In this document: positions 11,001 to 61,602 of the stretch, one piece after another | How positions within the stretch are numbered: position 1 is the stretch's first letter | Layout of the letters: each line of letters opens with the position of its first letter | Assembly (NCBI GenBank): GCA_027491395.1 | Contig: JAOZFI010000041.1 | Coordinates: forward strand, 64,001 to 128,000 | From: Thermoproteota archaeon | GTDB lineage: Archaea > Korarchaeota > Korarchaeia > Korarchaeales > Korarchaeaceae | Direction: 5' to 3' | DNA: 64,000 bases | Notes under the pieces: model-generated | Databases searched by the model: none | Told to the model about the DNA's origin: nothing | The model's input: the letters and a program-made list of their open reading frames with translations, nothing else | Position numbers and translations under genes: made by a program

Positions 11001-11142
11001 GTTTACCAGGATAGGATCTAAGTGAGGGGGCTAGGTCCCCGAAGGTCAGGTCGATCCTCTCGGGTTTGATCTCTTCCTCTGAATAGGTCCTGTAGTTGTA
11101 ACCTAGGAACTCCAAGAGGGTTGAGGAGGATACGCGAGTCAA
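8077..11142 (-). CDS. SF2 DEAD/DEAH-box helicase (Hrq1/SftH/MrfA-like) with a C-terminal extension
   Basis: LYSHQ Q-motif, SGTGSGKT, YPTLALANDQ, DELD, TAT, QGLDIG, QREGRKGR. Confidence 0.85.
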   Translation of the reverse strand: MTRVSSSTLLEFLGYNYRTYSEEEIKPERIDLTFGDLAPSLRSYPGKPSEIADMRLYSHQVEALKALEEGKNVILISGTGSGKTEAWFFYAAKGKRALAIYPTLALANDQVRRLEEYSKALGISSQVIDARRRTILIKELGRSGLRTKISNIDLLITNPAFFMTDLKRMATKGSYLSDFVRGMDLLVVDELDFYGPRELALIVSMMRIISLLVEKSPQFVILTATLGNPEELAECLTSINARETVIIRGKPFRVRNEVYLVLGKNMERIWEVVQRYRDELLSLPIGGDLREAIADYKRFERDVYRVVELLRSVGIEVPQPEMDPAEVIYHYSEDDGVTLVFTRGIRSAESLKRRLKTEFGMEDVASHHHLVSKEEREEIEEAARRGGIKVLISPRTLSQGLDIGTVVRVVHLGMPESVREFKQREGRKGRREELGWTETVIFPMYRWDKELLLRGVEAVEQWLQLPLEVALVNPKNKYSILFEGLYKFVHPRLRDQLDQEEINLLKELGLISPSGLTQRGKRVWDNLNFYEFGPPYGFKRALREDGNLRYLEDIGHCDLVERFQPGSIDYSNDSVVVDFLRRGRVITGIIEEPLNYSTIYSFDPLAFVIEEYERTKAEWGERADMIDDYYRGRIGSEVVCVVDPPTDGFGVKTKVPNRVYWKVTSSKVRPVPLDGKTLFIRESKSLPVIGPTGGVYRDYTYGLSIELDPGEDLTWLRIGLATLMLVMRVSKGIPIDAIAYEVTNIGDKKILLLHEPESAGLLEQLDWSAVLKDVERFQPDDLSEVLMMLIDDQAHYELVVSGLRWDLAMKFAERALGYLLLKQRISVILEGREFLVPKPSRAHKILTMDAVVMPISDAVTLGVIAVFDGEDVGIQTIAKEFFEGQSYDLSGLEKAVNEGFALICWDFASLTRDLTMLGQKTLVYVLQGLRSEGKVVELRPLVEDFLGISPVSLEEVAKRMWGIKRSLKDALVEIKRSVSKIEERSGVDWRRYTKYLREKVREIVEDRVRSLYLTYLALSGQ

Positions 11143-34028: not shown

Positions 34029-34103
34029 CGGGCCCGGGGGGACTTGAACCCCCGACCTGCGGCTCCGAAGGCCGCCGCTCTATCCTTGCTGAGCTACGGG
34101 CCC
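34029..34103 (-). tRNA. tRNA-Arg(TCG), intronless, CCA not encoded
   Basis: GGGCCCGTAGCTCAGCAAGGATAGAGCGGCGGCCT-TCG-GAGCCGCAGGTCGGGGGTTCAAGTCCCCCCGGGCCCG folds as a cloverleaf; TATTAA about 25 nt upstream. Confidence 0.96.
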
Positions 34104-47843: not shown

Positions 47844-48062
47844 ATGGATGGACCGAGTGCTATGAGCCTAAAGGGTCTGCTGTTCTGGCTTGCTGGATCC
47901 CTAGCACTTCTCCTATCCCTATTCACGCTAGTTGCCGATGAGTACACTCTCCTATTGATATTGAGATGCCTATCATTCCTTTTCCTGTTTGGAGTCGGAG
48001 TTCTGCTCCTCATAATCGCCAAGAAACTGCTTACTCTCTCCCCACCTCCTCCCGCTGCCTGA
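47844..48062 (+). CDS. Small two-TM membrane protein
   Basis: Two hydrophobic segments; TATA-like ttttaatta upstream; fills the gap between flanking genes. Confidence 0.5.
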   Translation: MDGPSAMSLKGLLFWLAGSLALLLSLFTLVADEYTLLLILRCLSFLFLFGVGVLLLIIAKKLLTLSPPPPAA

Positions 48063-48615
48063 GCTTGACGCCGTATAACGTCTCGTATATCGGCCCCTGC
48101 GGAGTGAGGGTGCTTTTCTTGAACCTCACCTCCTTGACCTCTATGACTCCTATGTCAACATCCGAGATCCTCCTTATTATCTCAGGCAGATCGCCGGAGT
48201 AGCCTTTGACCCTAGCAATGGTTAGATGGGGCTCGAATCCCTTTGTCTCCCTTCTGAAGCCTAACTTGGCTAGGGACCTGTCGAGCTCCTTGGCCATCCC
48301 GATGAAAACGTCTCTTCCCTCATCCACACCTATCCATACGACGTTCGGCCTGCTCACCTTGGGAAAGGCTCCAACTCCTCTGAGGTGCATGGGGAAGGGC
48401 TCAAAGGATTCGAGCACCTCTCTCATGATGGAAACCACCAGCTCTATCCTCGATTCATCGACATTACCCAAGAACTTCAAGGTGAAGTGGAGGTTCTGCC
48501 TCTCCACGGGTCTGAGCTTTGCGCTCGAGGAGAGGATCTCCCTCTGGACCCTAACTATCTTGGACACTATCTCAGGATCCTCGACATCTATGGAGATGAA
48601 GCTGCGTATCCCCAC
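48031..48615 (-). CDS. thpR: RNA 2',3'-cyclic phosphodiesterase (2H family)
   Basis: HFTLKFLG and PHLTIAR 2H motifs; STLTPQGPIY. Confidence 0.94.
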   Translation of the reverse strand: MGIRSFISIDVEDPEIVSKIVRVQREILSSSAKLRPVERQNLHFTLKFLGNVDESRIELVVSIMREVLESFEPFPMHLRGVGAFPKVSRPNVVWIGVDEGRDVFIGMAKELDRSLAKLGFRRETKGFEPHLTIARVKGYSGDLPEIIRRISDVDIGVIEVKEVRFKKSTLTPQGPIYETLYGVKLRQREEVGRE

Positions 48616-48628
48616 TATCTTCCCTCCT

Positions 48629-48994
48629 TCACCTGAGCTCTGGAGGTACGCCCTCGTTAGGTATCATACAGAGGAACAGAATCTCCTCATACGCGAAATA
48701 CTCGTGAGGAAGATCGGGAGGTACGTATATGACATTCCCCTCCTTGACCTCGAATTCCTGATTCCCGATCCTTATCTTCCCCCTCCCCTTCAGTACAAGG
48801 ATCTCGTGCTCCCACGGGTGGCTGTGCTCAGGTATGTGCCCTCCAGCCTCCACCCTAAATATCCTCATCGAGAAGTTGGGTGCCCCGTCCTTAGGGGAGA
48901 GCACCCACTTGATGTAGGTCTTCTCAGCTTGGGGGACCGGTTGGAAAGGGATAGAGTCGATATCCTTGATCACGGGCCGGGACATATGCCTCAA
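48629..48994 (-). CDS. Cupin-domain protein
   Basis: HSHPWEHEI...G...VIYVPPDLPH. Confidence 0.9.
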   Translation of the reverse strand: MRHMSRPVIKDIDSIPFQPVPQAEKTYIKWVLSPKDGAPNFSMRIFRVEAGGHIPEHSHPWEHEILVLKGRGKIRIGNQEFEVKEGNVIYVPPDLPHEYFAYEEILFLCMIPNEGVPPELR

Positions 48995-49014
48995 GGTCGG
49001 TGCAACGTATAAAA

Positions 49015-49078
49015 ATGGGGCTCAGTCCTAAAGCGTATAATCACCCCTCATAGATCACCTCCGACATCATCGCCCCAT
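49015..49078 (-). ncRNA. C/D-box 2'-O-methylation guide sRNA
   Basis: AUGGGGC-G-AUGAUG(C)-UCGGAGGUGAUCU-AUGA(D')-GGG-GUGAUUA(C')-UACGCUUUAGGA-CUGA(D)-GCCCCAU; 7-bp terminal stem followed by a U tract. Confidence 0.9.
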
Positions 49079-49088
49079 CTGATGAACA

Positions 49089-49976
49089 TCAAACCGTTAT
49101 TAACTCGAACTCCATCTTAGACCCTACTAGGGCGAGCAGGTCTTCCATCCTAGAGGGCATTATCAAGGCACCGGCAGCGTTTCTGTGCCCGCCACCTCCC
49201 AGTCTCTCAGCTACTTCTAGGGCCGAGAGCGGAGAATCTTCTCGACTCCTTAAGGAGAGCCTCAAGGCTCCATCGGATCCGGTAGTGATGGTCCCGAAGA
49301 ACTTGTATCTCTTAGCCGCTAGTTGTATGACAGGCACTAGGTAGGATGGGAGGCTCTCTATTCTTACCAAGAGAGCATCTCTTCCCTCCAAAGATAGTAA
49401 CTCCCCTAATCGATCCCCGTACTCCCTCCATATGAGATCCACTTCTCTCTTCACCGCGGGAAGGTTAACCAGCTCATCACTTGTCGTGGGAGGGTGTAAC
49501 AAGAGATCTCTCGCAACTTTGATGAGATCAGATCTCTTCCTCTTGAAGATCTTCCTGATGGCGGCCGTAAAGAGGGCGGAGGACAGATCTAGGTTACCCG
49601 TATCCGTCTGATCAACTAGATCTACGGTACGAGAGAGATCCTCCACTTGAGGTTCGCACTCCCTCAGTATGTCATACAGGAGCCTCGCCGTGGACGGATA
49701 CTCCGGCATGAGAAAGGCTGTTCCCACCCTGTCAAGGAGGGTGAGGTTGGACTCGTGATGATCCACGAGTATTCTAGTACCGCCCCTCGGGGGAGGCAGG
49801 TCTAGGACGATATCGAAGCTCTCTAGCGACTCCCTTATCTCGTAGGGCGCGGAGAAGTGGATCTCGAGGTCCTCCGGATGTATCAATGCCATGAGGGAGG
49901 CTGAGAATAGACCATCTAGGTCCTCCCCGTGGCTAGCTACCTTGATCCTTCCACCCTTCGAGACCAGCTCGAACAT
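49089..49976 (-). CDS. DHH/DHHA1-family phosphoesterase
   Basis: SHGEDLDG, VLD, VDHH, SLRS, GGGGHRNAAG. Confidence 0.88.
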   Translation of the reverse strand: MFELVSKGGRIKVASHGEDLDGLFSASLMALIHPEDLEIHFSAPYEIRESLESFDIVLDLPPPRGGTRILVDHHESNLTLLDRVGTAFLMPEYPSTARLLYDILRECEPQVEDLSRTVDLVDQTDTGNLDLSSALFTAAIRKIFKRKRSDLIKVARDLLLHPPTTSDELVNLPAVKREVDLIWREYGDRLGELLSLEGRDALLVRIESLPSYLVPVIQLAAKRYKFFGTITTGSDGALRLSLRSREDSPLSALEVAERLGGGGHRNAAGALIMPSRMEDLLALVGSKMEFELITV

Positions 49977-61525: not shown

Positions 61526-61602
61526 TGGCGCCCGGGCCGGGATTTGAACCCGGGTCTGGGGCTCGACAGGCCCCTATGCTAACCGGGCTACACCACCCGG
61601 GC
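61526..61602 (-). tRNA. tRNA-Asp(GTC), intronless, CCA encoded
   Basis: GCCCGGGTGGTGTAGCCCGGTTAGCATAGGGGCCT-GTC-GAGCCCCAGACCCGGGTTCAAATCCCGGCCCGGGCGCCA; TTTATAA about 26 nt upstream. Confidence 0.97.

Follow-up and report, generated by a model that had tools for sequence, protein, structure and literature searches.

The gene described here lies on the minus strand of a stretch of 64,000 nucleotides (the window, by which we mean the whole of the DNA that was analyzed), in the gap between the genes of a DHHA1-domain protein and of a cupin. A preliminary description had placed a box C/D sRNA in this gap, and both the location and the anatomy given there hold. The DHHA1 ORF is located upstream and the cupin ORF downstream, all of them on the minus strand, and the complete C, D', C' and D boxes with their 7-bp stem are read from 49078 to 49015. 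The features found are the following, in the direction of the minus strand:

49089..49976, minus strand: upstream neighbour, coding for a 295-aa DHHA1-domain protein (PF02272, 28.1 bits)
49097..49103, minus strand: TATA-like TTAATAA within the end of the DHHA1 ORF, upstream of the stem by about 19-25 nt, a putative promoter of the sRNA's own
49015..49078, minus strand: whole box C/D sRNA, 64 nt from stem to stem (72 bits with covariance model R1; syntenic orthologues)
49072..49078, minus strand: 5' strand of the terminal stem, ATGGGGC, pairing with 49015-49021
49064..49070, minus strand: C box ATGATGT (consensus RUGAUGA, deviating at the last base), with one G between stem and box
49052..49063, minus strand: D' guide CGGAGGTGATCT, 12 nt, pairing with 16S 1529-1539, the +5 nucleotide being C1533
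49048..49051, minus strand: D' box ATGA, a variant of CUGA, its GA at least 90% conserved in alignment A1
49045-49047, minus strand: D'-C' spacer GGG, 3 nt
49038..49044, minus strand: C' box GTGATTA, a variant of the consensus, its TGA conserved among the orthologues
49026..49037, minus strand: D guide TACGCTTTAGGA, 12 nt, pairing with 16S 569-578, the +5 nucleotide being A572
49022..49025, minus strand: D box CTGA, conserved among the orthologues
49015..49021, minus strand: 3' strand of the terminal stem, GCCCCAT, forming 7 Watson-Crick (WC) bp with the 5' strand
49008..49015, minus strand: T-run and TTTATA right after the sRNA, a putative terminator of the sRNA and/or promoter of the cupin gene
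48629..48988, minus strand: downstream neighbour, coding for a 119-aa cupin (PF07883, 55.4 bits)

The layout is the textbook one for an archaeal box C/D sRNA, with C/D and D'/C' boxes, a short spacer, two guides of 12 nt each and a stem. The closing stem reaches 9 bp in the predicted fold (7 WC bp by the box layout). Among the orthologues described below the TGA.G of the C box is kept, and in other genera the D' box is CAGA, CCGA or CTGA. The sRNA starts just 10 nt past the stop codon of the DHHA1 ORF. An A/T-rich motif (TTAA, TTTA, TATA or TAAA) is found at an equal distance from the sRNA in 26 of 27 orthologues, as judged by eye and without a statistical control, suggesting that the sRNA has its own promoter. 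A TTTAT motif recurs behind most orthologues as well. The element at 49015..49078 is a genuine small archaeal box C/D guide RNA.

A strict scan for C/D elements over the whole genome gave three candidates including this one, against none in the reversed sequence, although such a crude scan is too rough for sizing the sRNA repertoire. The search against Rfam that the preliminary description had called for reached no family at its gathering score and gave only box-level matches with E values of 0.07-8. The nearest were the Pyrococcus families sR14, sR24, sR28, sR33 and sR49, which have a like order of boxes, a length of about 55 nt and similar spacing. Their scores were between 10.8 and 15.2 bits against gathering scores of 36-50 (the best was 15.2 against 38), and the boxes align while the guides do not. 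The element is a member of none of these families.

The source assembly (62 contigs, 98% complete) yielded neither a 16S nor a 23S gene, so the complementarity of the guides was checked on the rRNA of other members of the genus. The D' guide pairs with the 3' tail of the 16S by 10 WC pairs and one G-U pair in all six same-genus loci that reach the 3' end, and the D guide forms 10 WC pairs in all seven same-genus 16S loci. In the alignment with rrsH of E. coli the D' duplex falls at 1529-1539 and the D duplex at 569-578, and by the +5 rule the sites are again C1533 and A572. Thus the two 16S complementarities proposed beforehand, with the tail that holds the anti-Shine-Dalgarno sequence (anti-SD) and with the 570 region, are found in the 16S of the genus, and the two sites predicted from them are the same. 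Two orthologues have a D' guide with 12 of 12 WC pairs. In one close relative a change in the D guide extends the duplex to 11 bp. The rRNA of the congeners has a G+C content of 65-66%, compared with 53% for the source genome, which fits the expectation for a thermophile.

In order to have a reference for these numbers, shuffled guides and random 12-mers of the genome were compared with the rRNA (3000 trials each), and at least 10 WC pairs including position 5 were found in 0.4-1.4% of them. The joint chance of two guide matches of 10 WC is about 1e-4. The D guide has also a weaker alternative target in the 23S (9 WC and one G-U). Its 16S match could be due to chance, if the approximately 15 different D guides found in the family are counted. 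This guide is kept only among close relatives, where the flanks are likewise conserved.

Orthologues were searched by BLAST, by exact pattern and with covariance model R1, built from alignment A1, and every match counted was inspected. The sRNA is present in 17 of the 20 other genomes of the genus, and the three without a hit have a completeness of 70-83%. For the remaining genera of the family the counts are 4/5, 2/4, 4/5 and 0/1 genomes, so that 27 of the 35 other family genomes carry it. None was found in the eight genomes of the other families of the phylum, which comprises 43 genomes. In the genus, the DHHA1 gene is upstream of the sRNA in 17/17 loci, and the cupin gene is followed by a LigT-like one downstream in 16/17, with flanking proteins that go down to 52-63% identity. 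In the window, this LigT-like gene (a 2H phosphoesterase of the 2'-5' RNA ligase family, 48034-48615, minus strand) is located two genes downstream of the sRNA.

The two guides behave very differently along this set. The core of the anti-SD guide, GAGGTGATC, is invariant in the 17 orthologues of the genus, and its register with respect to the D' box is the same in every orthologue of the family. Across the same 17 sequences not one column of the D guide is conserved. The version directed to the 570 region is limited to 7 of 28 sRNAs of the family, namely those of the source genome and its six closest relatives, and the remaining D guides showed no rRNA target of at least 10 WC (for the other genera the rRNA of the source genus was used as a proxy). 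The preliminary description had suggested looking for homologues with compensatory changes, and these are seen in the terminal stem. Over 26 sequences, 68.7% of the cells were paired compared with 48.6% in shuffles, none of 500 shuffles was as high, and sliding the stem as a control gave the best value at 0. One orthologue, L185 from congener G004, has a damaged C box and scores 38 bits against 57-72 for the others, which may reflect decay or an assembly error.

The same pattern was searched outside of the family in one genome per species. This exact-pattern scan gave 88 stretches, and among the 80 listed 28 carried archaeal labels and 52 bacterial ones. The listed bacterial stretches were devoid of C/D architecture except for one repeated element with a 4-bp stem. 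Nine of the listed archaeal stretches came from the source genus and 19 from outside of it, and 16 of these 19 have the full C/D architecture, the same D' guide and the same register. They belong to MAGs labelled Desulfurococcales or Desulfurococcaceae, Thermofilaceae, Infirmifilum, Njord-, Heimdall- and Promethearchaeati. In the class to which the Desulfurococcaceae-labelled MAGs belong, the pattern was found in 11 of 351 genomes and its reversed version in 1 of 351. When nine spacings were allowed in this class, 9 of 12 matches were in this one register, and of the three that were not, two are real sRNAs whose spacer has 13 nt. Anti-SD sRNAs with a D' spacer of 13 nt, which moves the +5 site to U1532, are found in genomes G241 and G256 (loci L151 and L152). 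The partner guides of the anti-SD sRNAs differ from lineage to lineage.

There is prior evidence of a similar sRNA in Nanoarchaeum equitans. The text of (Seistrup et al., 2017; PMC5389701) describes Neq sR13, which pairs with 1405-1415 and 1531-1540 of the 16S and methylates A1534 in the anti-SD and A1408 (Am1408) in helix 44, both modifications having been verified by MALDI and RiboMeth-seq. As in the sRNA described here, a double-guide box C/D sRNA has one guide on the anti-SD tail and the other on a distant site of the 16S. Several details are different. The methylated nucleotide is A1534 in Neq sR13, whereas C1533 is the one predicted here; the guide for the tail, going by the wording of the paper, belongs to the 3' part of Neq sR13, and here it is the 5' (D') guide. 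The partner site is in helix 44 (1405-1415) there and at 569-578 here, where it varies among the orthologues. Besides, Nanoarchaeum is devoid of RsmA/Dim1 while the source genome has its gene, and Seistrup et al. propose for Nanoarchaeum an sRNA-based substitute for the RsmA/Dim1 checkpoint (PMC5389701).

A closer parallel as regards the modified nucleotide is Ignicoccus hospitalis, in which the same paper reports Cm1533 by RiboMeth-seq and attributes it to "a presently unknown sRNA" (PMC5389701). The nucleotide is the one predicted here, and RsmA/Dim1 is kept in that organism too. Among the 80 listed stretches (of 88) of the exact-pattern scan there was no Ignicoccus record. Our literature search found no other paper on methylation directed to the anti-SD by an archaeal box sRNA, and Cm1533 appeared only in Seistrup et al. 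and in one unrelated paper. Neither "Shine" nor "helix 45" appears in the body of three other papers, (Dennis, 2015), (Lui, 2018) and (Breuer, 2021) (in the main text of Lui 2018 "anti-SD" also has 0 occurrences), and their supplementary guide lists may hold such guides. With Seistrup et al. and the reviews in view, both the design of the sRNA and the idea of bridging or of a checkpoint have direct precedent and are not new.

The protein machinery is in place. The genes of fibrillarin (PF01269, 291 bits) and Nop5 (PF01798, 221 bits) are adjacent on contig C37 of the source genome, which contains as well two matches to the L7Ae family (PF01248, 105 and 69 bits). The organism uses Shine-Dalgarno (SD) motifs. 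SD-like 5-mers peak at positions -13 to -8 before the starts of 1378 ORFs, with about 100 per position against 24 expected, GGTGA and GGAGG being the commonest. For the 10-nt SD word GGAGGTGATC or its complement the genome has 27 occurrences, far more than the roughly 3 expected by our own estimate of the length, an abundance that would fit the use of long SD motifs. With such motifs in use, C1533 lies inside the helix formed with the mRNAs.

Our preferred explanation, to which we assign a probability of roughly 0.78, is that this is the gene of an ordinary methylation guide, a box C/D sRNA of an uncultured thermophilic archaeon. It builds on the boxes, their spacing, the complementarities with the 16S of congeners, the conservation, the register and the protein machinery. 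The sRNA would be transcribed, probably from its own TATA-like promoter, and would form an sRNP with L7Ae, Nop5 and fibrillarin. The conserved D' guide would then pair with the last 11 nucleotides of the 16S (1529-1539), placing fibrillarin on C1533 of the anti-SD tail for 2'-O-methylation. In the source species and the six relatives closest to it, the D guide would pair in addition with 569-578, leading to the methylation of A572. The methyl group on C1533 could plausibly make the tail, or the SD/anti-SD helix, more stable at high temperature. That the guide keeps a fixed register with the D' box suggests that selection acts on the methylation of one nucleotide and not on binding alone. Two details of the boxes count against the methylation guide, the C box ending in U and the D' box reading AUGA instead of CUGA. 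So do the abundance of GGAGGTGATC as a common SD word, the possible chance origin of the D guide match, the use of congener rRNA for the targets and the lack of an Rfam match at gathering score.

If the prediction is right, Cm1533 would sit in the stretch of the 16S that pairs with the SD, where it could tune the recruitment of mRNAs or, at high temperature, shield the exposed tail. Ignicoccus is the only case in which Cm1533 has been measured, and no guide is assigned to it there; the sRNA class predicts exactly that nucleotide and keeps one register across several archaeal lineages. It is a plausible guide class for Cm1533, and it offers a concrete candidate together with a search model, R1. 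It is in addition a clean example of an sRNA in which one guide is strictly constrained and the partner guide turns over freely.

The preliminary description had proposed a structural role, with one sRNP bridging the 570 region and the 3' tail and keeping the anti-SD masked while the 30S is assembled, as a chaperone or a checkpoint. Taken as the main function, this would make methylation secondary. It would be compatible with the methylation reading, and both guides do match 16S sites about 960 nt apart. A comparable proposal has been published for Neq sR13 (PMC5389701), and a bridging or chaperone function of double guides is accepted in reviews, according to the account in PMC7994747. Outside of the family some partner guides point in the same direction. 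Three Asgard MAGs (loci L069, L087 and L103, labelled Promethearchaeati and Njordarchaeota) have a D guide forming 10-11 WC pairs with 909-919 of a non-Asgard 16S. The D guides of G241 and G256 find their best match to their own 16S at nucleotides 11-18 of the 5' end, a weak one of 8 WC that is only a lead because runs of at least 8 occur in about 9-25% of the control trials, depending on the control used. Nevertheless, we consider it unlikely that tethering is the main explanation. The guide to the 570 region is limited to a quarter of the family sRNAs, with no rRNA match of at least 10 WC for the other D guides, and this free turnover of the partner argues against the tethering of 570 to the tail as the role that is conserved. 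A fixed anti-SD register is what methylation of a single nucleotide predicts, and binding alone needs none. RsmA/Dim1 is the usual late checkpoint enzyme and, being present in the source genome, leaves no need for a replacement checkpoint.

A more ambitious version, quite improbable in our estimation, would see in the anti-SD guide the constant anchor of an sRNA class that is widespread in archaea (Korarchaeaceae, Desulfurococcales-labelled MAGs, Thermofilaceae and Asgard MAGs) and whose exchangeable partner is repeatedly directed to strands of the long-range pairings of the 16S core, 569-578 in the present case, 909-919 in the three Asgard MAGs and, weakly, 11-18 in G241 and G256. The tail of the 16S emerges last, so completed transcription would gate the release of a pseudoknot strand held by the sRNP, a timing similar to that of U3, with methylation as a by-product. 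We take 909-919 to hold the 3' strand and 11-18 the 5' strand of the 16S central pseudoknot. The eukaryotic U3 snoRNA is of the box C/D class, pairs with the SSU rRNA near the central pseudoknot and has the function of a chaperone, not of a methylation guide. However, U3 has its own specific boxes and a hinge structure that are absent here, and the resemblance is only to the speculative tethering.

The D' guide also resembles a ribosome binding site, as GGAGGTGATC is followed by one base and then by the ATG of the D' box, an ideal SD spacing in an organism that uses SD motifs. A translated mini-ORF, a decoy for ribosome binding or a leader of the cupin gene would account for this word, and all three strike us as very improbable, since the architecture of boxes, stem and spacing and the covariation of the stem would be left unexplained. 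The candidate mini-ORF was rejected: it has 7 codons here, its length differs among congeners, its ATG is absent where the D' box is CAGA, CCGA or CTGA, and its frame is not conserved. The word was also discarded as the SD of the cupin gene, whose start is some 60 nt downstream of it and behind a TTTATA of its own. The least credible idea is that short motifs came together by chance between two genes and give rise to no RNA. It can appeal to the shortness of the boxes, two of them imperfect, and is excluded by the synteny in the genus loci and the conservation across the family while the flanking proteins diverged to about 55% identity, with the absence of candidates in the reversed sequence and the low joint chance of the guide matches speaking against it too.

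Other elements and candidates of the same kind were seen in the genome. Outside of the window, at C52:2069-2134, there is another box C/D sRNA whose stem is similar; compared with congener rRNA, its D' guide forms 10 WC pairs with the 23S and its D guide 10 WC pairs with the 16S. In eight other genomes of the genus R1 also gives matches of 33-36 bits, which may be orthologues of this second sRNA. The strict scan gave, also outside of the window, the candidates C37:11774-11822 and C43:24587-24634, with C, D, C' and D' boxes and 8-bp stems, whose guides had no strong match in the rRNA of a congener. Within the window, a loose C/D-like candidate with a 10-bp stem appears at 11022-11082 on the plus strand; it comes from a relaxed scan with 29 hits against 4 in the control, many of them false.

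The rRNA genes used as targets had some peculiarities of their own. In congeners G004, G006 and G010 and in G019, of the same order, the 16S match is interrupted at model position 828/829, pointing to introns or to a break in the assembly. Congener G013 has a 23S that exceeds the others by about 550 nt. Finally, two tRNA genes were identified with Rfam on the minus strand of the window, at 34029-34103 (67.8 bits) and 61529-61602 (62.1 bits).
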